A DNA stretch of 64,000 nt. Source: Owenia fusiformis (taxonomy: Eukaryota). Position numbers and translations under genes: made by a program. Positions 1 through 54,917 of this stretch are shown here, one piece after another. How positions within the stretch are numbered: position 1 is the first letter of the stretch; every line of letters begins with the position of its first letter. The notes beneath the pieces are model-generated. The model was not told the origin of the DNA and did no database searches. It worked only from the letters and a program-made list of their open reading frames with translations. The stretch lies in assembly GCA_903813345.2 (NCBI GenBank), contig CAIIXF020000001.1:23746001-23810000 (forward strand). Reading direction: 5' to 3'.

Positions 1-383
1 CAATGTCCCAGATAAGGTTAAACTCACAATCCTTTGTGTGTGATCTTGTGTACCAGTCCATACTTTTGACTTTGCTACTCAATATTGCATAAAATATCAC
101 AGTATTGTATTAAATTTTTATTATATTTGCACAACTAAACAGTAAATCCAAGGAGTCTTGATATTAAAGCCAAAAACATAATGCATACAATAAAATCTGT
201 GTCGTGGAACATCTTGGGTATATCATTCATAATAGTGTTTCACTTTTTTCATAGAGTTTCACTTATAAAGCTTCATTTTATATTAATCTAATCTATATGG
301 TAAGAGGATCTCACTAGTAGAAGTGTTCCACTTATTGAGGTTACCTACTTGCAGAGGTGTTCCCTTTTTACTGTAATTTTTAC

Positions 384-3300
384 CTTTGGCAGGTTTTGCA
401 GTTTTCTTTGGGGAGTCATGTCCCTGTAGTGCAGCTAGCTCAGCCTCTAATTCTGCATCATTGTCCAGATCCCCATATAACTCATTCTCCATTGCACTCA
501 AGTCAGGAGTCATCCCCATCTAGAAACAGTATACAAAAAATGTACAGTAGAACTTGAAGAAACCATAATTAAACCTGCACATCGCTCCAAAACGTAATAT
601 GTTGACATATACTTTTTTACATTTTCAAGCTCTAGTATAAAGTTGGTGTAAATAAAAATGTTTATTTCTGCGTAATATCAAAGCACAATGATTTAGTTAA
701 AATAATAAAAATGTTTGCGTGGGATTCAAACCTGGGCCGCCTGCGTACTCGGGGAGCACTCTACTGCTGAGCTACCAGTTAAGTACGAACAAGATGAGCA
801 ATTTAACGCTACTTATTTTAAGTGTTATAATTTGGAAGTGACGTCATGTTCTAAATTAAGAAACCTTCCAAATATCATATCGATGCTGACAAACGAAGCA
901 ATTCAAAGAACAATCTTTATAATGACACATTTATCTTGAGTATTTTAACACGAGATTTGCCCCATTTGTTCATGATTGTATAACCTTTCATTAAGCTCAA
1001 AATCATTAAGTTCATCCCCCCGGAACAACCCTAGAATGCGTTTCGGGGCAAACAGCAGCTTAAAAAAGTTGACAATCTTCAGGAGATAGCCTAAAGTGCA
1101 TGTTCATTCAGTTTAACATTGTTGTACATACATCATTGCGTATCACTTGTCAATGTCATCTCAGTTTTATATAATTTCGCATTCATGACACATAATAGAC
1201 ACTTTCAGTTTAAAACACTCTCATCTCATTCTCTGAAATCTGTCATCTTAATCTATACACCTATCATCTCTTCTACCCCATCAAATACTAAAATTGATGA
1301 CTTGATTTCCCATTACAAATCAAACTATAGAGTCTAGGCTAGGAGTTTTCTATGGGGAGGATTTCCCTTGTAGGTACAAAAAAGCTGATAAAGATGAAAG
1401 AAGTTTGTTCAGAAGTACATGTGGTCTGCCAAGTCTCTGATGAGTTGTACTATCAGAGTTGAAACAAATTTCAGATACACAAAAAAGGGGTAGGGAACAT
1501 GAACTAGCTCTGTTGAGTGTTCTTCAAAGCGAAGATAGATAAACTGGTTTACAGTGCTGCCATCTTTTTTACATAGCACCACACTCTATTTAGCTCCCAC
1601 CACACCCTACTGGCAAATCATGATTGTTACCACAGTTTAAACTTGACTGAATATACAATAATAGCATGTAAAAAGGATAAAATATAACATAAATATGATT
1701 TATCACAATTGAACGGTAATGCTGAAGATGTTTGCACCACACCCTAAATATTTCCTGGTGAGAGCCCTGGAACCTGTATCAACACCTGACATCTATTGGT
1801 TGCCAAACCTGAAATAATGAGCTTCTATTCTTCAAGGTCTACATAGCACAGGTGTCACGGGTCAGACATTTTTTGGGTTGGTTGGGTCAGAAAAAACTTT
1901 GTGGGTTGGGTAATTTCGGGTCGAGTCAGAAGAAAACAGAAAAATGAATTTGACTAATTATCGAACTCTCTACATTGTTTGCATGTAAATAAGAATGCAC
2001 TTTTTGTGTTAACTGACGCGTCATATAGTACAAGCAACTGAAGTGACTTGGGGAATACATGTAAACGACACAACATAAGCATGTCTATTATTGTTTCAGT
2101 CAGTGTTACTGCATATTATAAGGCTTTGATAAAGGAATAATGAAATAAACTTAGAATTAAATCGTCCCAAAAAAAACATAAATCATTTTCCAGGTGTAAT
2201 TTATACACACTGTAATGAGAGCACAAAGAGAATTTACAGTACGAACTGCCGAGGAAACAGCGGCTTATGCAACACAACAACAACAAAAAGTATACAAGAA
2301 ATAGGTCAGCTAGAAGTTCGATCATTTCCCGGGAATAAAAAGCATTTTACCTACATTTTAGATCATTTACGATGTTCCTGAGTGTTCTGACCCGACCCGA
2401 AATCGGTAAGTAGTTGTTCATTGGTTGGGCAGAGCCTTCTAGCCCCAGATGCGGGTCGGTGTGACACCTTTACTATAATATTTTTCACATGGTGTCCGAC
2501 GGTCGAAAAATCCATTTCTTTTCTCATTCGGCCGTATTCCTGAGTTTTTCAGCCATATATAATAAAGTTGGTCTTTGACTTATCTACACCTCCTTCCTTT
2601 CGTCAGAGAGCTGAGCAGAATCATGTCCAATTACAATTTCTTCTGATTAATCCTCTAAATTTCAAAATGGTGGATGATTCGAAAAAATATCATGACATGA
2701 CAAGTCATTATATTTTGTAAACTTGACCATCATACTTGAGATTGTTAATTACATTTATTACATTTTGTAAAATTACATATGTTTAGATTAGTTTGTAAAC
2801 TGGATTATCACATTTGAATCAGTTTATTTATAATTTTGAATATTTATCACCCCTTCAAAAATTAAACTATAGTTCATTCATGGAATTAATGGAATTCTGG
2901 AAGATTCTTGGAACTCTGACGTCACTTGAACAGAGGGAGCACAGATATTGGCCAGATCGTTTTGTAGTAGGATCATAGGCTCAAAGAATAATACAGAAGA
3001 TACGACACTAAATTGGAAAATTTCGAAAAAAAAGTGACCACCTTTCAAAACGTTCCTTATACAAAATGGTACCTGTTTCCCCGTGACAGATTTTGTACTT
3101 ATTTTATAGCTGAGATCTTCATCTTTCTATTTCTACTTGTTTGGTTCGAGTAAATAACCTATGGATGCAGTTATTTGACTTTCAATACGGCGAATATTTT
3201 TCACGAAATCCGGACTCTTGTGTGTCCAAATAGCATTGTAATGATGACGTCACATTTCTGGAACCACGGGAGCAACATTCAGATTTGGACAGACAAGAGT

Positions 3301-4130
3301 CCGGCGATAGAATATCACTGTTTTGGCCTCTTATCAACGCAGTATTGCTTGAATAACGGCCATTGGTGATAAAAAAGGTAAAGAATAACAAGACCCTTCG
3401 AATGAGGTATGATTTGTCTCATATTTTTCAGAAATGGCTCCAGAATCGTCATTTTAAAATTTGAAATTTTCTGAGGTGTCTCATCTTGAGGAAATATTAT
3501 TGAGCTACTGATTCTACTACAAAAGAATCTGGCCGGGATCTATGAGAGGGAGAGAAGAAACTTTTCTCAAGAAAATGGCCGAGTTTCTTACTGTATTTGG
3601 GTCAAATTTCGAGAATCTGCCTACTGACTAGGAGAATATGCACACATTTGACTTCAAAAAATAAGTCATGTAAATATGAGTAAGTAGACCAAATGATTCT
3701 ATTGAGAGATTTGAACTTTTTCTAAAAATTGATTTTTTGACTGTCGGACAGCATGTGAAAAATATTTTATATATTCTATTATTTTTCAGGTTGCTCAATA
3801 GATGTCAGGCAATTGATAGTTCCCGTGACTGTCTTTTCTCAAACAAGCCATGGGCTCTTATTGAAAGCCCATGAACACACACAGAAATGTGTATAAAATC
3901 TTTATAACCCAGTTATGGGATTGCCATGGTAAAACTTCCCGAATCCTCTTTCAGTCTTAGCCCTGGTCTTAGCCTAGGCCTCTGTGATTTGTGAAAAACA
4001 AAAATTCCACAGGAAATTCAATCAAAATTTGATGACAATATTTTAGGGGATGTAACACTCCACATACTTGCGCCATAAGCGATGCTCCCTTCCTCTTTGT
4101 GTCCCCCGAATCTCTCTTGTTGCCGAACAT
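384..4130 (-). CDS. CC2D1: Coiled-coil and C2 domain-containing protein 1 (CC2D1A/B, Lgd homologue), first two coding exons; gene continues beyond the left edge
   Basis: Exon 1 4130-4068 (MFGNKRDSGDTKRKGASLMAQ, donor GTATGT, phase 0) joins exon 2 519-384 (acceptor TTTCTAG; MGMTPDLSAMENELYGDLDNDAELEAELAALQG...; donor GTAAAA). The D-x-ELEAEL-x-AL-x-G N-terminal motif is characteristic of CC2D1/Lgd. Confidence 0.75.
717..777 (-). mobile_element. Degenerate tRNA-like segment (tRNA-derived SINE head or tRNA pseudogene)
   Basis: Minus strand reads GGTAGCTCAGCAGTAGAG (A-box-like) ... GGTTTGAATCCC (B-box-like); the anticodon arm and acceptor stem do not pair cleanly. Confidence 0.45.
2482..3762. mobile_element. 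Non-autonomous TIR element hosting the 605-bp MITE
   Basis: About 35-bp imperfect inverted repeats TTTTTCACATG(G/C)TGTCCGAC(G/A)GTC(G/A)AAAAATC at both ends; TSD not resolved. Confidence 0.5.
2940..3544. mobile_element. 605-bp MITE, copy 1 (hAT/P-class by 8-bp TSD)
   Basis: About 45-bp imperfect TIRs (CACAGATATTGGCCAGAT / CATAGATCCCGGCCAGAT); TSD AGAGGGAG at 2932-2939 and 3545-3552; near-identical to 22939-23543. Confidence 0.9.
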
Positions 4131-4357
4131 AATGATTAGTTAACCAAAAACTTTATGAACGTTGATTTCCCGTGAAGAATAGAGAAGGAAGCATTTTTTG
4201 TTTTGATATTTTTCAAATCTCGAATTACGAGATTACAAACGAGACTCGAGATGGAAGCAAAATTTTGCAGAAAATGCATTTTCTATGTTTATTGTAATAT
4301 TGTAGCGTAAATAGATAACAAGTTACTTAAATAATCGAACAGTTATAAGATTATATT
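4131..4357. promoter_or_regulatory. Putative bidirectional promoter/5' UTR region
   Basis: Only 227 bp separate the divergent ATGs of CC2D1 (4130, -) and REXO1 (4358, +). Confidence 0.55.
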
Positions 4358-4475
4358 ATGTTCAATACATCTGGGTATTTTCGAGGCGTAACATGTCCGT
4401 ATTATGCCAATGGGCTATGTGAAAGACCCTACTGCCATTTTCGACATGTCAAAGCTGACAACAATGAACAAAAAG
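4358..4475 (+). CDS. REXO1: REXO1 exon 1 (N-terminal Cys/His motif); absent from the ORF track
   Basis: [39 protein letters not shown], then donor GTAAGA. Confidence 0.88.
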
Positions 4476-7400
4476 GTAAGATTGAGGCCTATGTGTTGGT
4501 CTTGGTGTTATGTGTTACTGTACGTTAGTTTATCTGTTATAATTTAGATAGATAAATGCAGAGGGTAAATATCTTTTGGCCTTGTTTCTTATCTGACATA
4601 CATGTACAGTTATCCCGTGCCAGGACTACAATAGTCCTGGATTGAGCCCAATCTTTTGCCTGTACGATTACAATTTGGGAGAATTATCGACGCCCCTTAC
4701 ACTTAGATACCTATTTCAATAGATTCCTTGGTATAATAGCATTCTTTTCGTGTAGTTAAATCCACAATTGTCTGGGTTTATCGGCAGAATGAAATTTTCG
4801 TTTTTGATCGCAATATTTGCGTGTTATATTTAACTTATATCAACTGTCAAATTCCTCCATTTATTAGTACTTCCGGGCCAGTCGAATGGGGAATCCCCTT
4901 TTAAATCCAACCGCCATCAAGAAAAGTGATGGAATCTCTCGAGATCAAAAACGAAAATTTCTTCGTTCTGCCGATAAACCCAGACAGTTGTGGATTCAAC
5001 TACACGAAAAGAATGCTAAAATACCAAGGAATCTATTGAAGTAGGTATCTTAAGTGTAAGGGGCATAGATACATGTAATTCTCCCAAGTTGTAATCGCAC
5101 AGGCAAAAGATTGGGCTCAATCCAGGACTAAAGTCCTGGCACGGGATAAATGTACAGTATCTTGTAGTCCAACAACACTAGACCTAGCCTGGGGCCTTGT
5201 TTCTTATCTGACTTATCTTATGGCCCCGACTAGGTCTAACCTCCATCATCATTTTGGCATAAGCGCGTAATTTTTATCGTTCCGCTAGTTTCGACAAGCG
5301 GAACTAATTAAACCCTGTAATAAGATGGTATTGTGAAATAATGTGATCTAAGCAAGCATATATACTGTACCTTATGAATACAAATACATCATCCAATATC
5401 CCCCTGTGTCTTTGATGATGAATACATTCAAAAGTATTCGAGACCGCTTGCAATTCCGAGACACACTGAACGAAACACCGTTGATAATTACATTTAGAAC
5501 ATGTTTTAACCATGAACATGTAGATCTACGTTTCTTCTGTTTTCAGAGCATGCAGAGCAAGATGGCTCATCAAAGGAGCAGTCCCAGACATCTAGTAATT
5601 CTGGTTCCTCTCTTTCCATTCTCAACATGGTTGGGAATGCAATACAGCAGGTACAAAGAGAAATTGATGTCAATCAGACAAGACCCCCTCATATACAAGG
5701 GGCACCTGGCACCCCATTGGTTTACAAACCTACACTTATTTCACATGGAAGGAAGCAGGAACTTGCATCTACAAATTTCAGTAACCGCAATAGACTTCAA
5801 GCCAAACCATATCGTTATGTCCCAACTGCTATTCCAAAGAACAGGCCTCATTTAATATCTTATAAACCAACTCCAATCAAAGAATTAAAGAAACAGGATA
5901 CCAGTAATACTGACCTAGAATATGATCCTGCTTGTAATTACTCCACTAGTACAACTAAAAGTCCTCCTAAAAAGCCTCCAAATGAAACAAGTAAAAGCCC
6001 AATAAAAGGAGCTAATGTTAAGAGTCCAGGTAGAGCACTCCCATCTGATGCTATTGAGGCCAAGTTCAGTAGTGAAAGTGAGTCTGAGGTTGAGGCAAAG
6101 GATGAAGATAAAATAAAAGAGGAGAAAGATGATCACAAAACTGAGTCTGAGTCTGAAAAGAATAAGGATCACATTGAACAGCATGCAAATGCTAATAAAG
6201 AAGACTTGGTGTCTAATATCTCATCAGGAACAGAAAGTGTGGAAGCCAATGTAACAAAGAGAAATGAAACTGATCAAAAGTTAATGAAACCAGATGAAAA
6301 ATTAAAAGATAAAGACAATTTGGCAGATTCTGGCACCAAAAAAGAAACAGGGAAAGATATTCCCATTGAGGAATCTAAGGAAAAGCCAAAAGAAACAACT
6401 GGAAAACAGTCAAATGCTGAAGAAGAGGATAATGCGGATATAATTGAAGTTCCCATTGACACAAGCAAAGTGAAGAAAGAAAAGGAAGATGATGCATATG
6501 AAAGGACAGTTAAAACAAATGAAGCTCATCCAGCTGACACCAAAAACAAAGATGTCAAAGAACAAGACAATGTTGTTGACAAAATACAAAACATTAAACT
6601 AGAAAAAGACACGCCCCTTAGTACAAAAGCATATGAAGAGGCAGACACCACAAATAAAGACCAGTCTATTATGAAACCAGAAAAAGTGAAACAAGAACAA
6701 TCTGATCAACATAAAGATAATTTGGATGATCTACAAGCAGAGTCAAAAAAGATTAAAGAGGATAAAGCTCAGCGAGATTCAGATGACTCCTTGGTTCTCT
6801 CTGATAGTAGCAGTGATTCTAGTGTCGGGTCTGAATATAGCAATACCAGCAGCTCAAGTAGTTCAGAGTCTTACAGTAGCAGTAGCAGTGATTCAGAGTC
6901 AGATACAACAAGATCTTCAAAGCATAAAAAGACATCAAAAACAAAAAGGAAAAACAAAAAGCATAGAGACACAAGTCATTCAAGATCACGTGATAAAAAG
7001 TCATCTCACAGATCTAGACATAAGTCACGAAAAACAAAGAAAAAATCTCGTCATTCTTCAAGGTCAGCTTCTCGATCTAGAAGTAGGAGAAAATCATCAA
7101 CTAAACAGAAGAGGCACAGGTCATCTCGTTCAAGGTCAAGATCAAAAAGTAAAAAGAAGTCAGATGAAAAACATGGAAAACATAAATCAACATCTTCTAG
7201 GTCAGTGTCACATTCCAAGTCCAAGAGGAAATCAAATGATAAGCAACATAGGAAAGCTACCTCAAGGTCACCATCAATATCATCCTCAAGGTCAAGTTCA
7301 AGATCTAAAAAGGACAAGAAGGAAAAGTCTAAAAAGGATAGATCTCATGATAAATCTTCAAAACACAAACCTGAGTCTAAGACAAGCACAGATAAAAGAA

Positions 7401-10400
7401 GTTCCTCAGAGAAAAGATTGAAAGATAAAGATAAGGACAGACAGAAGAGGAGAGACTCAACAGGAAAAGAAAAAGAAACAAGACATCGAGATAAAAAGTC
7501 TAAGGAGTCTAGTAAGAATAAACATTCTAAATCAAAGAGCTTAGAATCAAGACACCACAAAACAGACAAAAAGGAACATTCCAAAAGTAAACATAAAGAT
7601 GCAAATGATGCACTCAAAGCTAGCATAAAAAGGAAACGCAGCACATCTCAAACATTAGTACAATTATTTGGTGAGGATACTGATAGTGATCTAGAAGTTA
7701 TATCAAGTGGTTCAAAAGCCAAGAAACCAAGCAGTTCAGTTGAAGAATCTAGCACTAAAAGATCATTAATTGTATGTTCCCCTGTCAAATCTAAGAGAAA
7801 GGATCCTGAAGTGATTGTAATTGATAATGATAATGACCATAAACAGTCAAACCATGGTGTTATAAAATCTTTGCCCCTGACCAAACGTAAGAACAGCACT
7901 GATACCAAAGTTGCTACTCCAAACAATAAACTGATAAAGGATCATATGGAAAATATTAGAAAAAGTATTGATGATAATGACAAGCCTGATGCTGAGAAAG
8001 ACAGAAATGTAACACCAGCTAAAATTTCAAAGAACAGGTTGACATCAATACGTAAAAGTATTGAAGATATTTTGGAACATGAACCAAAACCAGGACCAAG
8101 TAATGAAAATGATAACCCCAAAGATGACAAAACAGCCAAAGATCTGGAAAGTGACATTGACAATGATGTTGATGACCTCAGTTCAGATGATGAAAATGAC
8201 TTTGAGGAGGTTGAAGACATGGACCTTGAAGCAATGTTTGAAGAGGATGATCCTTTTGATGAATGTTTGAAGATATTTAATGAGAGCAAAGGTGTCGCTC
8301 CAGTCAATGACCAGGGTCCTGTAAGTATATATTATATGATCCACTGTTCCTTCTTTTGCCAATAGTCCAATAGTCAAAAGTCCAGTAGTAAAAATACATT
8401 TGTTCCATGGAAGTTTTCAAAAAAATATTGTGCGAACCAAAAATAGAGTTTGGTGAACACATTATAGCTTACATTATTGGCAATGTGAAATATGAACAGC
8501 ACTTGTATGTGTTGCTAAAAAAGAAAGTTGGAGGAAAGTGAGCAGTATAGTCAGCCCCAACGTTAGTATTTATCCCTGATTTGTTCACATTGGAAGTCAT
8601 ACAAGTACTCAATTGTCCTTTGTGGGCTCTAGGCTAGAAATCACGCTTTTTCTTCAGTTCTAAATATTTTTTATCTGTTTTCCAGCTGAAAAAGAAAAAA
8701 ACAGAAACGGAAGCAGCTTCCTCTAGCCTAGCAAAGAAGAGGAAGGCACATGATAAAGCTGCCAACATTCCAGTAAGTGAAAATATTGTACACGAATTAA
8801 GAAATATAGACCGAAGAGCAGGGGTAATATTGTCGAATACACCCTGCAGGGCTAGGCACAAACGTTTTCTGTACCCCAAACTACTGAAGGTAGTGAGGGG
8901 TTCGAAAGCTTTTGTGCCTAGCCCTAAGGGGTGTATTCGACAATATTACACCTGCTCTGAGGTTTATATTACGATTCGAACATAAAAACTCACCAAAATG
9001 TTTCGAATATTCATTATGGTCTGCCATTACTACGGCCCGCCGTTATGACGTCACACATTACACGTATTACCAGGGGTTTTGTTCGCGAATATACCCCGGC
9101 TGAAATGTTGACTTTGTTTACAGTTTATAGAAGGCGTGAATACAGTCATGTTCGAATGCTGGTTAGGCCTTGATGATATAATAGTTCCAAATGAATATTG
9201 TCACTATTACCCAGTTCTATACATGCCACCAGTTAGTACTGCACCACATGTAATATTAACAGTAGGATGGCCAATCATCAGAAAATCCTTTTTGCATCAG
9301 TTTGGCAGGGATATGAACCCCAAAATGTCACGACCCATGTTAACAACAAGCATGTCACTGTACCTTAATCGGCCTAATATGATGGTACTCACATACTCTG
9401 GTGAATAAGAGACATACATACATGCATGTATATAAATTACTGTTACACTAAGTTCTCTGTTTCATAATGTCTTCACTTTTCATGACGTTATAGTCTCCAA
9501 CTTTTTTATGGACGGTGTTCAGCATTTGGGGGTTTGCATCTGTAACAAATGACATGTGGTGACATTTTGTATGTTAATGCCTTGTTCTTTTAAGTTGTAT
9601 TTATTGATCTATTTTCAGGTAAAAAAGAGCAAGCCAAAGACATCAGTAAGAATGACTCCTGCCCAAGTAATGCATAACAGGTTCCAGGACCTGCAGAAGA
9701 AAATGACTAAAGTTGCTGCAGTAAATGATTCAAACACTCAGGTAATTTAAACTTAAGCCAGTTCTGCACCTTTACAAAAGATTGAAAAACTGGGAAAGTG
9801 TCTTTTCAATTCCATGTAATCAAAAATTAGATTTTGAGCTACTGTAAGTATTCTACTATAATATGTGAGTATCACATAAAATGTGAGAAATATTATCCAA
9901 TTTGTTAGTTATTATGAGTATACTCATATATGCAAATCGATATTTCTCATTTTCATTGTTTCTATTTCACAGGTGGCCTATTCTATGAGTAGTTCAACAT
10001 CTTCTGTACAGCGCACAGCTCACACCCCCAAAGCCAAGCCAGGCACAAGTCTACTCACAAATAAAAGAAGGGAGTCTCTTGTTAAGAAAACACAAGAACC
10101 GCTTCAAATAGGAACAATAGCAAAAAATGCCAAGCGAGTGGCTCATGTTCCAGCTGTGGTGAGTCGACTATATTGTATGTTACTATGTATATTACAGGCT
10201 GTAGTAGATTCCCCATAAATCTTAAGTGAAAATTAAAGGTTGGATCTGCCATAGGAAGGTGAAAACTATAAAAATGTTTTATGAATGTAAACCTTAAGGT
10301 TTCTTCTGTCCAAAATATAAAACTTCTGAGGATCACATATTATGCTCTCTCTCTCTCTCTGTCTCTTTATATTACAAAAATTAGTGAAGAGAAATCTTGC

Positions 10401-13400
10401 GAACCTCTCATGCATGGAATATAGCGCCTGTTATAATTGAAAAAGTGGTAATTAAAATGTTCAATTACAAACTTTTTCAGGCCACTGTGCAGAGACCTAC
10501 AGTTCCAGCAGACTTTGGATCCAAGATCCCCAGTAGTATACGACAGAGATACCTCAATCTGATCATAGATGAGCAGCTGAAAGGCTTGAAACCTGGTACT
10601 GAGGAAGGGCCATATTATGAGAAGGTGAGATCCTTGAATTAATTTGAGAGAACACGATAACTGTAAAACTAGAGGGAAAGGTGTGACATTTTTATCTTCA
10701 AAAATACGAAAATCATGTGCACAATTAAAAGATAAAGTAAAAAGTACAAGTAAAGTAAAAGTGGAGCACCTCTGTAAGTTGAACACTTTCAAATGTCCTG
10801 TTATCTATTAATTTGATATAAAATGATGTTAGTCAATCACCTTCCACTTAAACAGGATTTACTGCATATTGATAAATGTGTATGAGGAGCGATTTGGAAT
10901 TAGATAAAACTATATCACGGAAACCTGTTTTTAGATACAGCCTGTGTCTTTGGTTAACTTGTCATATTTTTAGGAAAATTAAAAGACATTTTAATAGCCA
11001 TTCTCTAAAGATATTATATCACTTTGACTTAATTTTGAATATTCAATAACATTAATCAAGATTACATGATTATATACTTGTTTCTAATCCCATTTATCTA
11101 GTCCATTAACCTTAATCTTAAAATCCTACAGTTAATGATTCCACATTAATATTATAAGTAATATTATAAACCCTAGAGATTGAATTGTTTTTGTCCATCT
11201 ACATTGTGAGCTGTAATTTCAGAGTCTAGCAGTGGAAAAAGCTGTCTATGATCGCAGTAAAAGTAAGAACATCTACCTCAACCTAGTCGTCTGTGCAATT
11301 AAACAAATCAGGAATGACAATGCCAAATCACAAGCAAGCACCTCCAGTGGAAGTAAAAAGCCAGCTGCTTCGAGGAAGGTATCCCACAATGCAGTACTAG
11401 GTGGTGCTCCAGCTGCGAGAACAACATTTACCGTGAATCGGTTTGGTGCCCATAAACAGCTTACAGATGCAGATCTTAAAGGTATTAAACTACATGGAAC
11501 TGAAAATAAACAAATATACAAGGGGACCAAGAAATAGTTTCCACATTATAATGGAATAAAATGTTGAATTGATTTCATAATTAATAAGTATATGCAAGAA
11601 ATAGGTTCATGTCAAAATAAATAAGACTATAGCCTTCTAATGTATGTTTAGGGAGTGAGTTAAACAATACAACATCTTTCTTATTGTATCTTTTCCTTCA
11701 GGTAGTGAGTTATACAAAAGACTACAGCCTTCTTATTGTATGCTTTCCTTCGGGTAGTAAGTTATACAACAGACTACAGCCTTCTTATTGTATGTTTTCC
11801 TTCTGGCAGTGAGTTATACAACACATTACAGCCTTCTTATTGTATTTCTTCCTTCTGGCAGTGAGTTATACAACACATTACAGCCTTCTTATTGTATGTC
11901 TTCCTTCAGGTAGTGAGTTATACAACAGATTACAGCCTTCTTATTGTATGTTTTCCTTCTGGCAGTGAGTTATACAACACATTACAGCTTTCTTATTGTA
12001 TTTCTTCCTTCAGGTATTGAGTTATACAACAGACTACAGCCTTCTTATTGTATGTTCACCTTCAGGCAGTGAGTTATACAACAGACTACAACCTTCTTAT
12101 TGTATGTCTTCCTTCAGGTAGTGAGTTATACAACAGATTACAGCCTTCTTATTGTATAATTTCCTTCAGGTAGTGAGTTATACAACCAACTACAGCCTCT
12201 TTATTGTATGTTTTCCTTCAGGCAGTGAGTTATACAACAGACTACAACCTTCTTATTGTATATGTCTTCCTTCAGGTAGTGAGTTATACAACAGACTACA
12301 ACCTTCTTATTGTATATGTCTTCCTTCAGGTAGTGAGTTATACAACAGACTACAGCCTTCTTATTGTATATTTTCCTTCAGGTAGTGAGTTATGCAACAG
12401 ACTACAGCCTTCTTATTGTATGTTTTCCTTCAGGCAGTGAGTTATACAACAGACTACAGCCTTCTTATTGTATGTTTTCCTTCAGGTAGTGAGTTATACA
12501 ACAGACTACAGCCTTCTTATTGTATGTTTTCCTTCAGGTAGTGAGTTATACAACAGACTACAACTTTCTTATTGTATGTCTTCCTTCAGGTAGTGAGGTA
12601 TACAAAAGACTACAGCCTTATTGTATGTTTTCCTTCAGGTAGTGAGTTATACAACAGACTACAGCCTTCTTATTGTATATTTTCCTTCAGGCAGTGAGTT
12701 ATACAACAGACTACAGCCTTCTTATTGTATATTTTCCTTCAGGCAGTGAGTTATACAACAGACTACAACCTTCTTATTGTATGTCTTCCTTCAGGTAGTG
12801 AGTTATACAACAGACTACAGCCTTCTTATTGTATGTCTTCCTTCAGGTAGTGAGTTATACAACAGATTACAGCCTTACTTATTGACTGAGGAACAGCTGA
12901 GAGAGAATGGCTTCCCAAGGCCAAACCCTGATAAAGCAGGAGCTGCACTCTTCTATAAAGAGGATAAAGAAAAGAAAACTATAACAAGCTCAGGTTTGTT
13001 TTTTCCCATGATTAATATGTTTGTGTACATATAAGCTCCATTGTTGTCTTTCTTCATGATCCTCATTCTCTCCAAAATGTTTGTACAGAAAATTTAAAAA
13101 TAAATCTCGTGTTTGGGATGGAGACCATACTTAAGCCAAAAAAATATTTGCACATTTTATCCTATAACATTTCTCATTTGTTGAGTGTCTAACATGAACT
13201 TTCAAAAGTGAAAGTTTGTAGAGAGGAATTTTGAATACATGAAATCATGATTTTTCTCTTACAGAGTTTGAGAAGGTGTGTTGCCGGTGTGGCTCGCGTT
13301 TCATGGTGCTCTCCAATGGCAGATATAGCAAAGATGAGGAATGTGTGCACCACTGGGGCAGAGCATATAAAAGAAAGCGTAGGTGATTTTGCATGGTTAA

Positions 13401-16400
13401 TGAGGTTGGGTGTTTTTTGGCTCACACAGTGAGCCTATGGGATCGACCAGGCGTCCGTCCGTCCGTCAGTCCGTCAGTCCGTCCGTCTGTTGGTCCGTCC
13501 GTGTATGTTTTCCTTCAGGTAGTGAGTTATACAACAGACTACAGCCTTCTTATTGAGTTTTCCGGCCGGATCAAAACGTTTAACCCACCTATGCGCAGTC
13601 TCAAGTCTGTGGACCCTGAAGAAAGATAACTAACATCACAATCAAATCAAGACAAAGAAAGAAGACAATGAATGAAGAAACTAATGCAGCAACAACAAAT
13701 GACGTCCGTCCGTCAACATTGGCAGCACAAATTAAAACTGCTATTCGGATTGAGTCATATCCACAGTCATTTTATGCATATCTATAATGCCTATTTGACC
13801 TATCATCGCCATTTCCCAAGTTCGCCCGGTTTCTGAGAAATTGCTGATTTTGACGTCAAAAAGTCAAATTTTCTGTAAATACACTTTGTTGAAGTAGAAC
13901 TTTCAAATAACTTGTAGTAGTTGCTGTATATGCAACTTATGTCCTCTGAGGATTTCAAAGTTCTTGGAATTACATTTTTGGTGTGACAAAAAGTAGGACT
14001 TATAGCGCAGTCAGATGTCCAGAAATGAGCCCTTTATAGTTCGACTTTTTCAGGAAAGCAACACACTTGGCACAGTTGTAGAAACACTTGATCTGAGTGG
14101 AAAATGATTTCGGGGCAAGTGATCCGGAGTGGTCTTCATGGATTTTTTAGTCTCTGACCCAAACCCCTATCAGGCGGGGAGGGGGTACATTATAAAAAAT
14201 AAATAAAAATGGTTTTGAAGTAAATTTTTTTAAATGACTTCATTTGGTGATTGCTCTGAGCCTTGAAATTGAGACAAACCGATTGTAGAAGTGGTGTTTA
14301 GTGAGGAAAATACATTTTGACCCAATTATCTAGCGTGAATTCATATTTTAAAGGGTCAAATATGGGACATCAAGTACTGTATTTCAAGAATTTGATGTCT
14401 GATCATCTTGGAAAAAATCATACTAATAGGGGTATAGGTGTTCATCACAAATATAGAATATGGCTTGGGTAGCTCATGTATTTTTTGAGATAAAAATTAT
14501 CGAAAATTGAATTTTTAAGCCCTTGCGGCCTAGGGGTAACCTTATTCTACCTTAATAATTTTTAAGATATGCAATGTATGGGTCTCATATGAGCTCAAAA
14601 TGGTGCATTGAGTCTTGTTTTGTCATATTATTCCTAATTGGATTGAAAAATGATTGGAACTTTTCAAAAAAAAATAAAAATTTCATTATCGCTTCTGAAG
14701 GGCCAGGGGTAACCACATTTTACCTTGATAACTTTCAAGGTTTGTAATATATGTATCTCAAATTAGCTCAAGATGGTGCATATAGTTCTGTTTAATCATA
14801 ATACCTCCAATAAGATGTAGAAAATGATTGGACATTTCTTAAAATTTGAAATTTTCATTTTAGCTTATGATGGCCTTGGGGGGGGGGCTTATTTAATCTT
14901 GAACTTTTCTTAATTATGAGACGTATGCATCTCAAATGAGCTTAAAATTGTGTCATATACTCTTGTTTTGTCATATTATTCCTTAGGAGATGTAAAAAAT
15001 AATGGAAATTTGAAAAATGACATCTTTAGCTTTTGACAGGTCAGAGGTGATTTTATCGTATATTACCATTATATAGAAGCAAAGGATGGAGTGAGTTTAG
15101 CAGCCCCGTCCCCATGACCAATGCCATTGGCAGCTTGGGTCTTAAAGCATTTATGACCCAAGCTGCAATAAACCATGCTGACCTATTCTCAACCAATCAG
15201 CCAGCTTGAAGGAACAAGTGCTAAATGCGTGTACATTAATGATGCGATTTCGTCAGAGAAAATGACCATATAGAAAGCCGTCCTTATTTCGACAACAAAC
15301 TCTGATTAGCGCAGTAAGTTCAGAGATTTATTGAAAACTGATAGAGTGAAGACGAAGCTCTCTTTTGAGAAGGAAAGTCGAATGAATGCAAAGGGTAGTA
15401 AGTCCAGTCACCTTAACCTGATGGGGGAGGGGTTAAGGTGAGCTGCTTTTGTCAAGGATTCTGTCAGTGAATAATGACAGTCAATGATTGGGCACAAGAA
15501 TGCCAAATGTTATTAATTTTCAAGATAAAATGATCTCAAAATGGGGAAAATAGTCTGTTTTTCACTTTATTCCTACTGAGATAATGAGTAACAACAATTA
15601 GAAAACTCAGTGACACATTTAAATCTCAATCCATTCATTCCATTTTTCCATAGCAGTAGAATACAGATGTAACATCACATCCAATGATTGTATGAAAAAT
15701 GGTGAGGGTTAAACTTTGGCCATGGGCAGGTAGATATTGATAGGATTTCTCCCTTACCATATGCTATCCAAATTGACTTTTTCATTTTTTAACATCACAT
15801 ATATGCCAGGATAACCACATCAGAATTAAATGTAAGGAGTATTATTCTTTCTCTTGAAGGCCATGATTGAAGCAGTCTTACTGAAAATATTGAGAAATAT
15901 CCTTGAATCTGCTTCTTCTTAAGAGCAAGGGCAGAACCTCACTGTTGGGCTAAAACATTGCATTGCCTCCTTAATTTATGTGGTCACTATCTTCTTTCCA
16001 TCCATTTCAAGGGTTTCAGTTTCCTCCTTAGACTATCCTTGTTCCAGTTCCACAAGTCTCTCTAGTGCTGTTTTAAAGGTGCAACAATTAGTGCAAAGGG
16101 GCCATTCAACGATCATGGACCAGTGTCAAAATATATTCAAGTTTGGATATTTCATCAAGACTAACATATATGTTTATTTTTTTCCAAAGAAACCCCCTGG
16201 ATGAACATTATTTCAGCTGATTCCTCTTGAAATGTTTTGGATCTTAAAAATCTATAAGTGGGCCTCCCTTTATAGAAGCTTTGAACTGAATTTACACTTC
16301 TTAATGCTAAAATTGATAGTTTATCCATACATTTTAAGAAAATAGGTATGTCAAAGAAGATGTTTAGCCAAATATTACCCTGATAGCTCAGAAAAAGTAA

Positions 16401-19400
16401 AAAGTAAAAAAATTGAATCTTCTACAGACCTTGTTGCCCCTTTAAGCTAGTGTCCTGGTAAACATTCCAGCTGACATCAAGGCAATGAACTATTTGCAGA
16501 CTTTTACTGGGTAATATCATATTTGCATAATCACCCAGTTTTCTTTATATATCACTGTTAGCATGTTTAACTATACATGCCCTGTCTATTATTTTGGCAT
16601 CTACTATGTAGCATAGTCATTCAACTTTGATGTTAATGAGCATAGATACAAACAGCACAAAACTGGAACAGTGAGGAAAGTATATTCTACTAATTTTCTT
16701 CTGTGGAATTGGCAAGATTTCCTAAGATAGTTGGAACAAGAGGGAGCTGTTTTCCTTCCAGGCATTAAAACTGAAACCCTGGAGGAAGATGGCAAGATTG
16801 TGACCTCACAATGAGGTAATGCAATATCTTAGCCGGATAGTGAAGTATCTGCCATCACCATTCGCTCGTATGAAGAAGCATGCCAAAGACTGCTTCTGTC
16901 ATGACCTAATAAGAATCATAGCCAATACAGTTGATTTTGATGTGGTTTAAACTGGCAGTAACTTGTGCTGAAAATGTCAATTTGGATTGCATATGGCCTA
17001 TGGTGAGGGGAAATTCCTCCAGAATGTACGACCTGTCTTAGATATTTCAAGGCCACTTTGCCATGAACGAAGTTTAGCCCTTACCATTTTTCATACAATC
17101 TCTAGATGCATTCTGCTACTACTCTTAGTCAACTGATTTGCAGGAATAGAAGGTGTACCCAGAGGTAACGCAAGTGTTCTAAAGCTTTAAATCTTTTTTG
17201 ATACCCTAAAATTAGAAGACTAGAGTCCTTATTCATTCTGATGCATTCTTAACCACAGTTTCTATCACCACATGAATGTGGCTGGCCTACAACATAAAAT
17301 GTAGGTCATGGGGTAGATACCTGTGTCAAGAGAACAGATGCAAATGTTTGAAAGCAGATCTGATTTGCTCTAAGCTATGTAGCTGTAGGGGAGACTGTCA
17401 GAATCCATAAATTGTGACTCCTTTGATTAGGTTTTATAGATTTGGATTATATACTCAAATGATAATATACAGAATCTTAACAATGCTACTACTCGTGCTA
17501 GTATGAACTGGACTTATCAAACATTTTCACATCTTAGAAAATGTTTTATAAAACTAGATAGTATTGCCATTGGTACTAGAAAGGAATAAATGGCTGTTGA
17601 GGTTCATTTTTTATAACTGTTAATCATTATTGTATATCTCAGTAGGAATAATATGACAAAACTAGACTATATTCACTATTTTGAGCTCATTTGAGTAGAC
17701 AATATGATATATCTTTGTTTAAATTTTTAAGGTAAAATTAGGTCATTCCTGACCTATCATAAACTACACTACCAATCTCAAATTGCATCAAACAGCATGG
17801 TTTCATAAACAGTGCTGTAAAAACAGTACTATACACAGCTGTTTTCTAAAACAGTACTGAGCTGTAAAAACAGTACTGTACTACGCTGTCCAAAACTGAT
17901 GGTGTTAGAATAGCATTGTACATTGCTATATAGTGCAGTACTCTGACTGCACTGTTCAGTACTGTTTACAGCACTGCAAGAAGATGTTGCGGATTGGGGG
18001 TGTAATATGAAAATGTAATTTTCTTATAATTTCCAATCATTTTTTCACTCCTTGGGAATGATATGATAAAACAGGACTAAATATACCATCTTAAGCTCAT
18101 CTGAGGTGACTATGTCTCATATTTAGAAAATTATTAAGGTAAAATAAGGTTACCCCAGGGCCATCAAGAGCTTAAGTGAAAAATTTGATTTTTTAGATAT
18201 ATCCGATCATTTTCTACATCTTATTGGAAGAAGTATGATAAAACAGAACTATATGCAACATCTTGAGCTAATTTGAGATGCATATATTACATATCTGGGA
18301 AATTATTAGGGTAAAATATGGTTACCCCTGGCCCTTTAGAACCGAAAATGAAAATTTGATTTTTTTTTTATTTTCAATAATTTTTTTACATCTAATTAGG
18401 AATAATATGACAAAACAATACTTAATGCAACATTTAGAATTCATATGAGGCCCAAACATCGCGTATCTTAAAAATTATTAAGGTAAAATAAGGTCACCCC
18501 TAGGCCGCAAGGACTTAAATATCCAAATTTCGATAATTTATTTCTAAAAAAATACATGACTTACACAAGCCATATATCATATGAGTGATTAACACCAATA
18601 TCTCTATAAGTATGAATTTTTTCAGGATGATCAGACATCACATTCTTGAAATACAGTACTTGATGTCCTATATTTGACCCTTTGAAAGATGAATTCACGC
18701 TAGATAATTGGGTTAAAATGTATTTTCCTTCCTAAACACCACTTCTAAAATAGGTTTTTCTCAATTTCAAGGCTCAAAGCAATGACCAAACGAAGTCATT
18801 TAAAGAAATATACTTTACAACTATTTTTATTTATTTTATTATAATGTACCCCCTCCCCGCCTGATAGGGGTGGGGGTCAGAGGCTTAAAATCCATGAAGA
18901 CCACCCTGAATCAATTGCCCCGAATTCATTTTTCATTCAGATCATATATTTCTACAACTGTGCCAAGTTTGTTGCTTTCCTGAAAAGGGACATCTGACTG
19001 CGCTATTAGTCAGGAAACTTTCTTATGTATAAAGTCAATGGCAGGTTTTGTGATTGACAAGTTTCTCAAAGTTTGCCTTATACTTGATCATTTCTTGCAA
19101 TGAATTACATCATAACTAGATTTAAGCATTCCACTACATATTGCTCAATATATGTCAGCATCAAATTTTTACCGTTTTTGAGATATTTGACGTCAAAAAA
19201 CAATAAAAATAAGTTATTTTTCAACTTGCTTCAATTTGACCAATTTTTTTTTGAAAATCATCTACAAGTTACCAGGAGTTCAAATATTATTTTTAGTTTT
19301 AGGATTTGACCTTTACTTGACCTTCAGTGACCTTTGAAAGGTCAAAAAAGTTGATTTTTCAAATTGATTTTTGGATGTAAATTTTGGTCAGCTTAATCAC

Positions 19401-22400: not shown

Positions 22401-25400
22401 CAAGTAACACTTACCTCCCAAAGTGCCATTTCTTTCACACCGTTACACAAAGCACAGAAAACATTTGGATATACAATCTTTGTGATATGATCTGTCACTG
22501 GTATTATTCCCTCAAATCCTGAGTTCATATAGCATTTGCTCATTACAGACTCATTTCTGTAGCTTGGCTTACAAGTATGTTTCATAAATGCAAACTTTTC
22601 ACTTGAGATCTGCATACAGGAGAAATCATGTGATGTCAGTTTGAAAAGCTCGCCATTGTTTCTTTTATAGTGTTGACTGAAATTGCCACACTCTGATGTG
22701 ATGTCGCTACAGCAGTCTCCATATACAGAGCAAAATTCATCACATGAGCATAAACTTGTATTATAAGAGGACACATAATTGCTTCTCTCTCCACATCTCT
22801 GTCTGCATGTGTTGGAAACACAGGTTCTGTACAGACTAATATTTGTGCCACACTGCCCTATGTCTGTTGTTGTTGTATCAGCACTGTTCCCATGAGTACT
22901 GTTGCACTCACTGCTGTTCAAATAAGTACTGTTGCATTCACAGATATTGGCCAGATCGTTTTGTAGTAGGATCATAGGCTCAAAGAATAATACAGAAGAT
23001 ACGACACTAAATTGGAAAATTTCGAAAAAAAAGTGACCACCTTTCAAAACGTTCCTTATACAAAATGGTACCTGTTTCCCCGTGACAGATTTTGCACTCA
23101 ATTTATAGCTGAGATCTTCATCTTTCTAGTTCTACTTGTTTGGTTAGAGTAAATAACCTATTGACGCAGTAATTCGACTTTTAATACGGCAAATATTTCT
23201 CACTTGATCCGGACCGTTGTGTGTCCAAATATCATTGTAATGATGACGTCACATTTCTGGAACCACGGGAGCAACATTCAGATTTGGACAGACAAGAGTC
23301 CGGCGATAAAATATCGCTGTTTTGGCCTCTTATCGACGCAGTATTGCTTGAATAACGGCCATTGGTGATAAAAAAGGTAAAGAATAACAAGACCCTTCGA
23401 ATGAGGTATGATTTGTCTCATATTTTTCAGAAATGGCTCCAGAATCGTCATTTTAAAATTTGAAATTTTCTGAGGTGTCTCATCTTGAGGAAATATTATT
23501 GAGCTACTGATTCTACTACAAAAGAATCTGGCCGGGATCTATGGTTGCATTCAGTGCTGTTCCAGTGAGTACTGTTGCGCTCAGTGCTGTTCCAATGAGT
23601 TCTGTTGCGCTCAATGCTGTTCAAATAAGTACTATTGCGCTCAGTGGTGTTCCAATGAGTAATTTTGTACTCAATGCTGTTCCAATGAGTACTGTTGCAC
23701 TCAGTGCTGTTCCAATGAGTTCTGTTATGCCCAGTGATGTTCCAGTGAGTACTGTTGCGCTCGGTGCTGTTCCAATAAGTACTGTTGTGCTCAGTGCTGT
23801 TCCAATGAGTACTGGTATACTCGGTTCTGTTTAATTGAGGAAAAGTAATGTCACTCCTTTTGCCAATATCTTTTAATTGTTTTACCTTAAATTGTTCACA
23901 TAATTCTGGCAAAGTTATAGATTTCAGAATCATCAATGTGAATACCAATTTCACACTGGTACAGCTCATCTTTACATCACCAATGCACACTCTTGACTAT
24001 ACTGTTCTGTTGTGGACGTACAAGCTCTAACCCATCAGCTACCCAAGCTTAAAATGCAACTATGGGAATGTCTTCACTTAACACTATTTCTCCCAGAATG
24101 GAATATCTCATGTAGCAAGTATACAATATATCATAATATAATGTTAATTTGAGTAATTATTTCTCTGTTGTATTCTGTATTTCACACTTTTCAATTATGT
24201 TTCTTAATCATAATCATGTCAGTGATACTTTCTCATTAGTAATCGAATATCATCATGGATATTTGAATCTACCTTTAAGGGCTAATTTATACATATATTG
24301 GATATACTGTATATCAGTTACCAGAGCTTCTTAATATTTTGTGAAATAGGAGTTCAAGCTTACTTATTGTTTCCTCTTTATTAATAACAAGATGATATTC
24401 ATTATCTTAAGAATTCTACAAAGAAATGCTACGATGGCAATCAGCTAATTTTCAATGTTGTCATCTGCCTCATTTTGCAATTAGTAAAGAAATTTCTATT
24501 AATGGCTGTTTGTTGTCATGTAAAGGAAATGAAGCACAGGAAATATCTATATATCCGAACACCTCTCTAATTTGAATCCCTCTTTATGTGAGCACTTCTC
24601 TTCTGATAATGCTTCTTCGTTCTCAAATAAAAACCTTGAACATCTACGCTTGAGGGTGGTTCTGTTTCAAGCACACAGAGGGACAAAGTCAAAAAAAAGT
24701 CAAAAAGAAGTTCAATTATGACTTAAGATTTGAGATTTGACCTTCAATGACCTTCTTAGGTCAAAAAAGGTCTTTCTTCAACTTGCTTCAGATTGACCAT
24801 TTTTTCAAAATCATCTACAGGTTCTCAACATTTCAAATCTGACTATAGATTTGACCTTAAATGACATTCCTAAGGTCAAAATAGATTTGACCTTTAATGA
24901 CCTCCTCAAGGTCAAAAAGGTCTTTTCTTTAATTGCTTCAACTAGGTGGTAACATGTCATGTTAATGCCTTGTACAAATACTTGATACTAAAATACATTC
25001 TTGTTACAGATGCATGTGTTTGATGACAACAAGAAGAAAGACTTGAGTGGTTACATGAAGACATTACCCTGTTCCCCTCTTCCTGATGGTGACTATGGTG
25101 TATATGCACTCGATTGTGAGATGGTAAGTGATGATGTGATAGCCATTACTCTATCATGCCAAGCTTCAGTGAACAGTATAGCAATTGTTATTTCCATGTG
25201 ACTGCATCTTCTGTGACATTATTGAAACGTGATGTGATGTAAAGTAGAGGTGTCAAGTATTAACCGGTTAACCGCCGATAATGTCTTGACCGGTCTGTGT
25301 TTTTATGGGTGGTTAGTTGACCGTGTATAATTCTGTTATTTCCCGCGCTTATATTGCATGCTAATCTGTTTGCTTTTAAAGTGTTAGTTTCACGTAAGCT

Positions 25401-29539: not shown

Positions 29540-30686
29540 TAGATAAGAATACTCTAAGGCTGGGACAATTTTCATTTGCAATCATTTTGCTCCAGTGCTG
29601 TTTGGCACCTTAATTTAAGTTCTAAGTCAGAAGTAAATCATAAAGTAAGTGCTGGCTACAGACACAGTGTTCCTCAGTGACCACCTTACATGACCGATGA
29701 CGACCTTTCTTATTATACATTGACATTGATATATTTTGTTTTAACATGGGTACCTAGGAAAGAAGTCCATGGTTTTAACTGCGTAATTGTGCAATTTAAA
29801 AGCTGTTCTGTATGATAAAGTTGATTACAATGAAAATATTTGCAGTATAATATACAATGTAATTAGTTTCTTAAACGTTTGTTTTGTTAAATGTGTACAT
29901 GAAAATTAATGCCATCAGCACCAAATTCAGGAATCTCCAAAATTTTGATTTGAGCTCTAATCTGTAAATTTGCTGCTCTACAGTATAGACCAAGCAAAGT
30001 TGAAACCCTAGTATTTAGTATATTTCATATTCTACAGTATAACATGTCAAAGAATACTCTGACTACAATGTTATCAATGGTTATTATCTTGTTCTTTCAT
30101 AAACAACAGCCAAACTACATGATAACATTGCTCGTTAAACTGTTGAACTGTTTGAATATATCAGCTGCCATATGCAGACTGGGTCAAAAAAGACACTGCT
30201 CTAAAAACTTTTATCTATTTAAGCACATGCTATACTGCTATCTTGTGCTGATGTGAATTTGTGCGTCTGGGCAGGCGTGTAGGCAGGCGCTATATAAATC
30301 CTTGTGCTTTAAAAGCCCATGACAGATCTCATCAAATAGATTCTGAAGGAAACTGCAGCTTATCTATTCAACTTGAAAGTTTTACAAATGTGAGAGCAGA
30401 TGAGTACCAACATTTGATTAGGTTTTGGGCACCCTGGGTCAATGACATGGCCGCCATGTCCTTAAACGTTTGATATATGTTATCACTATGTGCCTTGTTT
30501 GAATAGTATACCAGTACACGTATCTATTTTATAACAAGGGAAATTTGTATCTTTATCATCCACTTGAGTTTTTGCATGCAGAGAGAACAATATAAAAGAA
30601 TAACTACATTCACACGTACGGTCATTATAATTCGAAAGTTCAGTTATTGAATAGCTCTCATCACATAGTGTAATGATTTTTTAAAG

Positions 30687-51300: not shown

Positions 51301-51790
51301 TATCAATCGGGCAGAATTCAACATCTATAGGGAGAAACGGACAAAGCAACCCACGAGAGACGTACAGCACTGAGGAAACGAGGGCCTACATGGCAATGAA
51401 TAGGCGCGGAAACAATGATCTTTAAAAGAGAGCGATGTTTGATCTCAAACGGAAATTATCAGATTATGATCACATAGAGCTCGCAAAATTGGATAAATAA
51501 ATCGTATGAGTACTCTAAATAATTTTCACATGGATTTCTTTATAAGGTTATAGCCACTGCTTTATCACGTAACAGGCGGATAACCATTGTTATTTTAATG
51601 CATTAGGAAATAAAGTCTATTGTGTACTAAAATGGATATAGCTTTTGGGAAGTAACTTGTAAGTCCTCGGATGATATCGTCAAATACGCACAATGTGACA
51701 AATAATTATACGGGAAACGAAACATAAACTATCCTTGTATCACAATAATTATCATGATTTACTGCCGGGTATGAAAATGGTGATCATATT

Positions 51791-54507: not shown

Positions 54508-54917
54508 AACTTTGTGTTATCCTTAAGAATAGGTCTGCCATTTTATCATACAGCAATTTAACTTTGAGGATCACTAATAATAGGTCTGCCATTTTATCAT
54601 ACAGGATCTAACTTTGTGTTATCATTAAAAATAGGTCTGCCATTTTATCATACAGCATCTAACTTTGTGTTATCATTAAAAATAGGTCTGCCATTTTATC
54701 ATACAGCATCTAACTTTGTGTTATCATTAAAAATAGGTCTGCCATTTTATTATACAGCATCTAACTTTGTGTTATCATTAAAAATAGGTCTGCCATTTTA
54801 TTATACAGCATCTAACTTTGTGTTATCATTAAAAATAGGTCTGCCATTTTATCATACAGCATCTAACTTTGTGTTATCATTAAAAATAGGTCTGCCATTT
54901 TATAATACAGCAATTTA
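54508..54917. repeat. 51-bp minisatellite, about 8 copies
   Basis: AACTTTGTGTTATCATTAAAAATAGGTCTGCCATTTTATCATACAGCATCT repeated head-to-tail. Confidence 0.95.

Follow-up and report, generated by a model that had tools for sequence, protein, structure and literature searches.

A homolog of the RNA exonuclease gene REXO1, predicted in a 64,000-nucleotide stretch of DNA from the annelid Owenia fusiformis (hereafter the window; contig CAIIXF020000001.1, positions 23,746,001 to 23,810,000), has an intron 7 that is made up for the most part of a 52-bp head-to-tail repeat, each unit of which reproduces the 3' splice site of the intron together with the beginning of exon 8. Assembled transcripts in three of four runs, from three studies, join the end of exon 7 (11481) directly to the beginning of exon 8 (12847), that is, to the last of the repeated acceptors. 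We consider it probable that the array is a tolerated intronic minisatellite which arose by tandem duplication of a 52-nt segment across the intron 7/exon 8 junction.

The exon that follows the array encodes 48 residues matching at 100% a 1538-residue Owenia fusiformis protein (P0003, whose source label is "unnamed protein product"). Rebuilt on the window, the gene comprises 15 coding exons which, joined at 14 GT-AG introns, give P0003 without a single difference. When residues 1150-1320 of this protein were used as the query, 274 proteins came up at E <= 1e-10; apart from P0003, the matches listed include 119 proteins, nearly all under the name REXO1 or RNA exonuclease 1 homolog and all from birds or fish. 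On this similarity the gene is a REXO1 homolog. Pfam places an EloA-BP1 match at residues 1101-1268 of P0003 (E 9e-48), and the codon split by the exon 7/8 junction, Gly1231, falls within it. All ten vertebrate REXO1 sequences covering the junction align across it without a gap, nine of them with Gly at this position, in the pattern L-x-G-x-x-L-Y-x-x-L-x-x-Y-[LM]-x-T-E-E-Q-L. Because these residues are conserved in vertebrates, the first 30 nt of exon 8, which form part of the repeat unit, are old coding sequence. The elements of the gene that surround the array are as follows (here and below, a slash within a motif marks a splice joint):

11223-11481, plus strand: exon 7 of the REXO1 homolog, ending in ...AAAG and followed by a phase 1 intron; the exon chain reproduces P0003, and contig letters match 11450-11479 at 29 of 30 positions.
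11482-12846, plus strand: intron 7, 1365 nt, phase 1, with the donor AAG/GTATTA and an acceptor that reads TTCCTTCAG up to the exon; from the exon chain.
12845-12846, plus strand: the used acceptor AG, in the last copy of the array; the protein is reproduced with it, and the contigs of runs X1, X9 and X13 (see below) switch here to the end of exon 7.
12847-12993, plus strand: exon 8, 147 nt, starting with GTAGTGAGT, the part outside the repeat (+31 onward) being purine-rich; from P0003 and composition.
13265-13378, plus strand: exon 9, joined to exon 8 in contigs of all four runs; from contigs and P0003.

We note that P0003 (window 4358-29539) yields only EloA-BP1 in Pfam at E <= 0.001, the exonuclease domain PF00929 being absent from its matches at this threshold; PF00929 is listed for most of the vertebrate relatives, and the C-terminal exons of P0003 still align to those relatives.

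Tandem Repeats Finder delimits the array at 11650-12884, with 23.8 copies, 91% matches, 1% indels and a score of 1942. A 23-letter pattern representing the AG/GTA joint, allowed up to three mismatches, was found 24 times in the window and not once in 100 shuffles; 23 of these matches lie inside the array and the remaining one belongs to a stray unit at 13510. The unit consists of the last 22 nt of intron 7 (CTTATTG...TTCCTTCAG) and the first 30 nt of exon 8, and it contains a branch-point-like CTTATTG, a pyrimidine tract, an AG that is intact in most copies, and the 30 nt with which exon 8 starts. The array occupies 1197 of the 1365 nt of intron 7 (88%), and its last unit provides both the authentic acceptor (AG at 12845-12846) and exon 8 bases 12847-12876. 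The presence of a tandem array of splice acceptors, the REXO1 identity of the gene and the duplication of the intron 7/exon 8 junction had all been proposed by an earlier reading made from the letters of the window (the sequence-only reading); the repeat finder and the joint pattern bear out the first of these, and the exon chain of P0003 and the homolog search bear out the other two. The array and its copies were located as follows:

11650-12884, plus strand: 52-bp minisatellite, 23.8 copies; Tandem Repeats Finder and joint pattern.
11700, 11752, 11804, 11856, 11908, 11960, 12012, 12064, 12116, 12168, 12220, 12274, 12328, 12380, 12432, 12484, 12536, 12588, 12637, 12689, 12741, 12793 and 12845, plus strand: first bases of the acceptor dinucleotides of copies 1 to 23; anchoring on the joint.
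11600-11701, plus strand: a pair of decayed units that form the 5' edge of the array; numerous mismatches, as well as gaps, when aligned with the consensus unit.
11879-11939, plus strand: copy 5, 61 nt identical to the context of the true acceptor; letter-for-letter comparison.
12092-12147, plus strand: copy 9, 56 nt identical to the context of the true acceptor; letter-for-letter comparison.

Nineteen of the 23 copies have AG as their acceptor dinucleotide; copy 2 has GG instead, and copies 3, 4 and 6 have TG. The count of 18 intact acceptors among the 22 upstream copies given by the sequence-only reading was exact, as was its list of the mutated ones. Thirteen of these 18 continue as AG/GT and five as AG/GC. 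A donor motif in most units had likewise been described, and GTGAGT indeed occupies positions +4 to +9 in 19 of the 22 upstream copies (16 of the 18 that have an AG), the other three reading GTAAGT, TTGAGT and GTGAGG; given that the intron 5 donor of the same gene is GTG/GTGAGT, the GTGAGT of the unit is as good as the real donors of this gene. Units measure 52 nt in 19 of 22 cases, 54 nt in two that are adjacent, and 49 nt in one. GTRAGT is found 53-58 nt downstream of 20 of the 22 upstream acceptors, a relationship that is formal only and a consequence of the repeat period. Two upstream copies are indistinguishable from the used site over long distances: copy 5 agrees with the true acceptor context at 61 of 61 nt (29 nt upstream, the AG and 30 exon nt), and copy 9 over 56 nt without a difference, the identity extending in both through CTTATTG, the pyrimidine tract, the AG and the 30 exon bases. 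Reading on from each of the 22 upstream acceptor positions leads to a stop after 17-54 codons in every case; as the sequence-only reading had it, only the last acceptor, with exon 8 starting at 12847, is predicted to yield the conserved protein. An Rfam scan of window positions 10000-15000 returned no matches.

Evidence on the use of these sites comes from contigs assembled from public sequencing runs. Sixteen runs from four studies contain 21-34% of the sampled words, their kind ("RNA?") being a guess; contigs of four of them (X1, X3, X9 and X13, one per study) were compared over window 12770-13445, a span that comprises the last two units (~2.2), exon 8, intron 8 and exon 9 and in which joints to copies 22 and 23 can be seen, copies 1-21 lying outside it. 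Contigs leave 12770-12844 uncovered in X1, X9 and X13, and 12770-12792 and 12825-12844 uncovered in X3. Intron 8 (12994-13264, GT..AG) is skipped exactly by a contig in each of the four runs. In X1, X9 and X13, one long contig each (1109, 1827 and 1422 letters, respectively) runs over exon 9 and exon 8 to 12845, and its next 30 letters are those of window 11450-11479 at 29 of 30 positions. The match reaches 12845 because the last two bases of exon 7 (AG) equal the intron AG at 12845-12846; given this shared AG, the joint in these three contigs is a direct one from 11481 to 12847, without an added triplet. The GTA or GCA triplets that the sequence-only reading had suggested looking for at the exon 7/8 joint are thus absent from the long contigs of three of the four runs, X3 being ambiguous in this respect. 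At window position 11462, in exon 7, the window has T and the X1, X9, X13 and X3 contigs have G (CTT to CTG, both Leu).

The distribution of differences among the units bears on how the array came about. Variation is confined mainly to a few columns and is common to groups of copies. Copies 3, 4 and 6 have in common the TG, a GCA and two further changes, and the four losses of AG therefore probably represent two events. A T-to-C change at the second base after the AG, which destroys the GT of AG/GT, is present in 8 of the 23 copies, and the T that exon 8 carries at +21 is found elsewhere only in copies 3, 4, 5, 6 and 9, near the 5' end of the array. The indels in the array are of +2 and -3, and its 5' edge is decayed. 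Local duplication, drift and a decayed edge make up the pattern of an ordinary minisatellite. The sequence-only reading had further proposed that the array originated through a CTTATTG microhomology shared by intron and exon. The motif does occur on both sides, at 12825 and 12878; however, these positions are 53 nt apart, as against a period of 52, and the extra A expected from a simple CTTATTG slip is absent at all 22 unit joints. Slippage at CTTATTG is a plausible origin that needs an additional loss of 1 nt or another breakpoint.

A single unit is also found away from the array:

13502-13555, plus strand: stray single unit in intron 9, identical at 54 of 54 positions to 12622-12675; pattern search and comparison.

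This unit, complete with acceptor and GTAGTGAGT, interrupts a (CGTC)n microsatellite (13452-13502, resuming near 13703) next to a dispersed repeat, and the flanks of 13502-13555 occur only once in the window. It is probably a local templated insertion copied from the array ~650 nt upstream. A transposon origin of the unit was considered and rejected, both because of this single occurrence of the flanks and because the opening 30 nt of exon 8 code for residues that are conserved among vertebrates. Immediately ahead of the (CGTC)n lies a hairpin-like element (13410-13445, GGCTCAC...GTGAGCC) on which a very large number of unrelated contigs fall in each of the four runs, marking it as a repeat that is dispersed and transcribed; on the minus strand, near 37700-37790, a hairpin resembling it is accompanied by (GTCC/GTCT)n.

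The closest relatives of this arrangement are minisatellites that span an exon-intron boundary on the donor side. Such arrays are known from F7 intervening sequence (IVS) 7 (37 bp), IFI6/6-16 intron 2, CBS IVS13, LMNB2 and PDGF intron 4 (PMC1557585), with ABCA7 intron 18 as a further case (PMC5954066); splicing in these donor-side cases uses the site next to the exon, the pseudo-sites being silent or of minor use (PMC1557585, PMC5954066), and the arrays have served in the argument over directional scanning versus exon definition (PMC1557585). The Owenia array resembles all six in that the authentic site is in the exon-adjacent monomer of a tandem array with identical or near-identical pseudo-sites in the intron and that use of a pseudo-site shifts the reading frame; the exon-proximal site is likewise the one joined in the long contigs of three of the four runs, X3 being ambiguous. 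Unlike in the donor-side cases, it is the acceptor that is repeated, along with a branch-point-like motif and a pyrimidine tract; the array precedes the exon, such that the last transcribed copy is chosen and not the first; donor-like motifs are present in every unit; and the host is an annelid. The features by which junction minisatellites are recognized, namely an array of 10-100-bp units in an intron, an authentic site in the exon-adjacent monomer and near-identical repeated sites, are all found here; since the repeated site is an acceptor and not a donor, we regard the array as a variant, and not a plain member, of the F7/IFI6/CBS/ABCA7 type. A literature search found no acceptor-side junction minisatellite, although most subscription journals were outside its reach and we do not claim that none is in print.

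Other known systems share single features with the array. The recursive sites described as ratchet points in Drosophila and as recursive exons in vertebrates (PMC8605326) likewise juxtapose an acceptor and a donor-like motif with a second donor ~50 nt further on, and exon 8 itself opens with a donor-like GTAGTGAGT, as an expressed recursive exon does (PMC8605326). They differ from the Owenia units, which lie in a short intron, have a weak donor at the joint and a strong one offset by 3 nt, and are arranged in tandem and visibly decaying. Where a ratchet-type site reads ...CAG/GTAAGT, AG/GT is found here in 13 of the 22 upstream copies, the donor is GTAGTG and a consensus-like GTGAGT follows 3 nt on. 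Intron 7, at 1365 nt, lacks the length that is a feature of ratchet-point introns, and for this reason the array is not assigned to the recursive-site family. Intron gain by tandem duplication of AGGT (PMC3265369, PMC4974935) is comparable in that AG/GT is carried and each unit, with GT at one end and AG at the other, is in principle removable by splicing; in contrast to that route, an existing intron has been lengthened here, and there are 23 copies and not two. The array is not a case of such intron gain, because no new intron arises and mRNA and protein are unchanged. As in NAGNAG tandem acceptors, several acceptors vie for one donor, but at a spacing of 52 nt versus 3, and with alternatives that are out of frame and run into stops.

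What distinguishes the last acceptor from the others must lie outside its immediate surroundings: since copies 5 and 9 match the used site there at every base, the choice does not reside in the 56-61 nt around the AG. Beyond the repeat, the span from +31 to +80 after the last copy is 60% purine and contains six GAR triplets, versus 38-48% purine and zero or one GAR after the 22 others, the low values behind the upstream copies being due to the pyrimidine tract of the next unit that falls in this span. Folding of 11400-13060 (pairs at most 200 nt apart) gave the last AG the highest unpaired probability, 0.76; copies 14, 16 and 17 are nearly as unpaired, at 0.66-0.70, and predicted RNA folding was dropped as the reason for the choice. 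We propose that the spliceosome would select the exon-proximal, last copy through exon definition, presumably because it alone is followed by the rest of exon 8 and by a true donor 147 nt away, and that the purine-rich, enhancer-like part of exon 8 would mark this acceptor as belonging to a recognizable exon. The upstream copies would then be silent pseudo-sites; their occasional use would give a transcript with an early stop that nonsense-mediated decay would clear and hide from view, and the array would be a neutral or slightly costly passenger, growing and decaying like any minisatellite.

Several points weigh against a silent, tolerated array. The role given to exon definition through the purine-rich sequence is suggested by base composition. 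The AG is kept in 18 of the 22 upstream copies and GTGAGT in 19, a degree of retention that may simply reflect the youth of the array. In run X3, where the contigs around the beginning of exon 8 are short, only one record contains the end of exon 7; it has 24 loose and 32 aligned letters and was aligned at the acceptor of copy 22 (12793) and not at 12845. The aligned letters comprise the AG and 30 nt in which copy 22 and exon 8 differ at a single base, and two records of this run fit two places; the short contig is ambiguous and compatible with real use of an upstream acceptor. We read it tentatively as the usual exon 7/8 joint from an allele that carries C at 12867, and offer in support that the contig pieces over exon 8 differ from the window by 1-3 letters, at unspecified places. 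Finally, rare isoforms are lost in contig assembly, contigs do not represent nascent RNA or lariats, and, the kind of the runs being a guess, identical joints would also be expected from a processed retrocopy present in DNA.

Alternative readings assign the upstream copies a function. The pseudo-sites may act as a regulatory decoy, trapping splicing factors or diverting transcripts to stop-containing forms or to a retained intron, with the number of copies setting the output of REXO1. We regard this as unlikely: the stop within 17-54 codons in all 22 read-throughs and the two perfect decoys (copies 5 and 9) are what such a device would use, and in humans the length of the donor-side ABCA7 repeat goes with altered splicing (PMC5954066), but neither stop-containing nor intron-retaining transcripts appear among the contigs of the four runs over 12770-13445, and the decay of AG toward the 5' end of the array speaks against upkeep. 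Quite improbable, in our view, is recursive, scar-free removal of the intron, by which exon 7 would join an upstream copy and the donor re-created there (AAG/GTAGTG) would be spliced again until exon 8 is reached, each unit serving as a ratchet-like point with a cryptic exon of ~52-55 nt bounded by the donor of the next unit. Its end product is the same as that of the direct joint, and the contigs consequently cannot tell against it; it draws on the AG/GT of 13 of the 22 upstream copies, on a re-created donor that agrees with the consensus at the same six positions (-3 to +3) as the authentic AAG/GTATTA, and on the GTRAGT located 53-58 nt past 20 of the 22 upstream acceptors, reminiscent of the ~50-nt cryptic recursive exon of Drosophila (PMC8605326). 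Ratchet points, however, occur predominantly in long introns (PMC8605326), and intron 7 measures only 1365 nt; GTAGTG departs from the consensus at +4 to +6, making for a weak joint motif; and, with five of the 18 AG copies reading AG/GC and four copies devoid of an AG, the recursive motif is evidently not being kept. No recursive intermediate appears among the contigs, a kind of data in which none would be visible. We hold it decidedly improbable that the units form a working chain of ratchet-like points, re-spliced one by one or in jumps, whose slips would insert Ser residues or yield RNAs that are sent to decay and determine the level of REXO1.

The sequence-only reading had also raised the possibility that a wrongly chosen acceptor is rescued by a 3-nt microexon, the GTA or GCA being retained and the GTGAGT behind it used as a donor, with the result that one or more Ser codons would be inserted in frame between Gly1231 and Ser1232. 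Its frame arithmetic (AAAG+GTA) is correct, and 16 of the 18 upstream AG copies present GTGAGT at the required +4 to +9. Exons of 3 nt are nonetheless very rare and require special factors. The joint in the long X1, X9 and X13 contigs is without an extra triplet, the Gly-x-x-Leu-Tyr spacing is constant in all ten aligned vertebrate sequences, and P0003, which reads Gly-Ser-Glu, is the form without the additional Ser and the sole same-species protein among the matches listed (lengths 845-2692 residues); a search for forms with the extra Ser among shorter same-species fragments gave 11 matches, none of them from Owenia fusiformis. We consider microexon rescue very unlikely; the rescue put forward by the sequence-only reading, whether by re-splicing at AG/GT or by a microexon, is formally sound but finds no support in the contigs and proteins examined. 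We give hardly any credence to an array collapsed, expanded or invented by the assembler, although copy number in noisy long-read assemblies may be off by one or two units. The units differ by ordered, shared variants and indels, unlike stutter, and a stray unit identical to the consensus stands 655 nt downstream; in addition, a published Owenia fusiformis assembly, from which the window may or may not come, was built from reads with an N50 of 25-30 kb (PMC9977687).

Should living animals indeed carry the array, it would constitute a natural experiment on 3' splice site choice, in which 19 intact acceptors vie for one donor, two of the upstream ones match the used site over more than 55 nt, and each stands beside a donor-like motif. 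An array on the acceptor side poses the mirror image of the question that donor-side arrays have posed about scanning and exon definition, and does so in an animal that is not among the usual models. Its study would show whether duplications that span a splice junction are tolerated through neglect by exon definition or through re-splicing; were the ratchet-chain reading true, a short intron would be removed stepwise, by recursive splicing in a tandem array and in an annelid. These considerations pertain to one locus in one species, for which no function has been shown so far.

Other repeats and genes were noted in the window. Intron 9 of the REXO1 homolog contains an inverted pair of 355 nt (14047-14400 and 18633-18986) with 90% identity, which may derive from a mobile element, either as two copies of it or as its ends, and intron 14 contains a 22-bp tandem repeat of 9.8 copies (29051-29265). 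A 30-bp tandem repeat of nine copies at 23544-23814 is open on both strands, with HWNSTE-type repeats on the minus strand, and lies just upstream of a minus-strand Cys-rich open reading frame of 568 residues with a Somatomedin B match. Downstream of the REXO1 homolog, two long uninterrupted open reading frames are predicted to encode an MFS/sugar-transporter-family protein of 577 residues (30669-32402) and a rhodopsin-family seven-transmembrane receptor of 481 residues (51758-53203). A 51-bp tandem repeat of 7.9 copies with 94% matches, at 54508-54912, is open in one frame and would encode a repeated 17-residue peptide.

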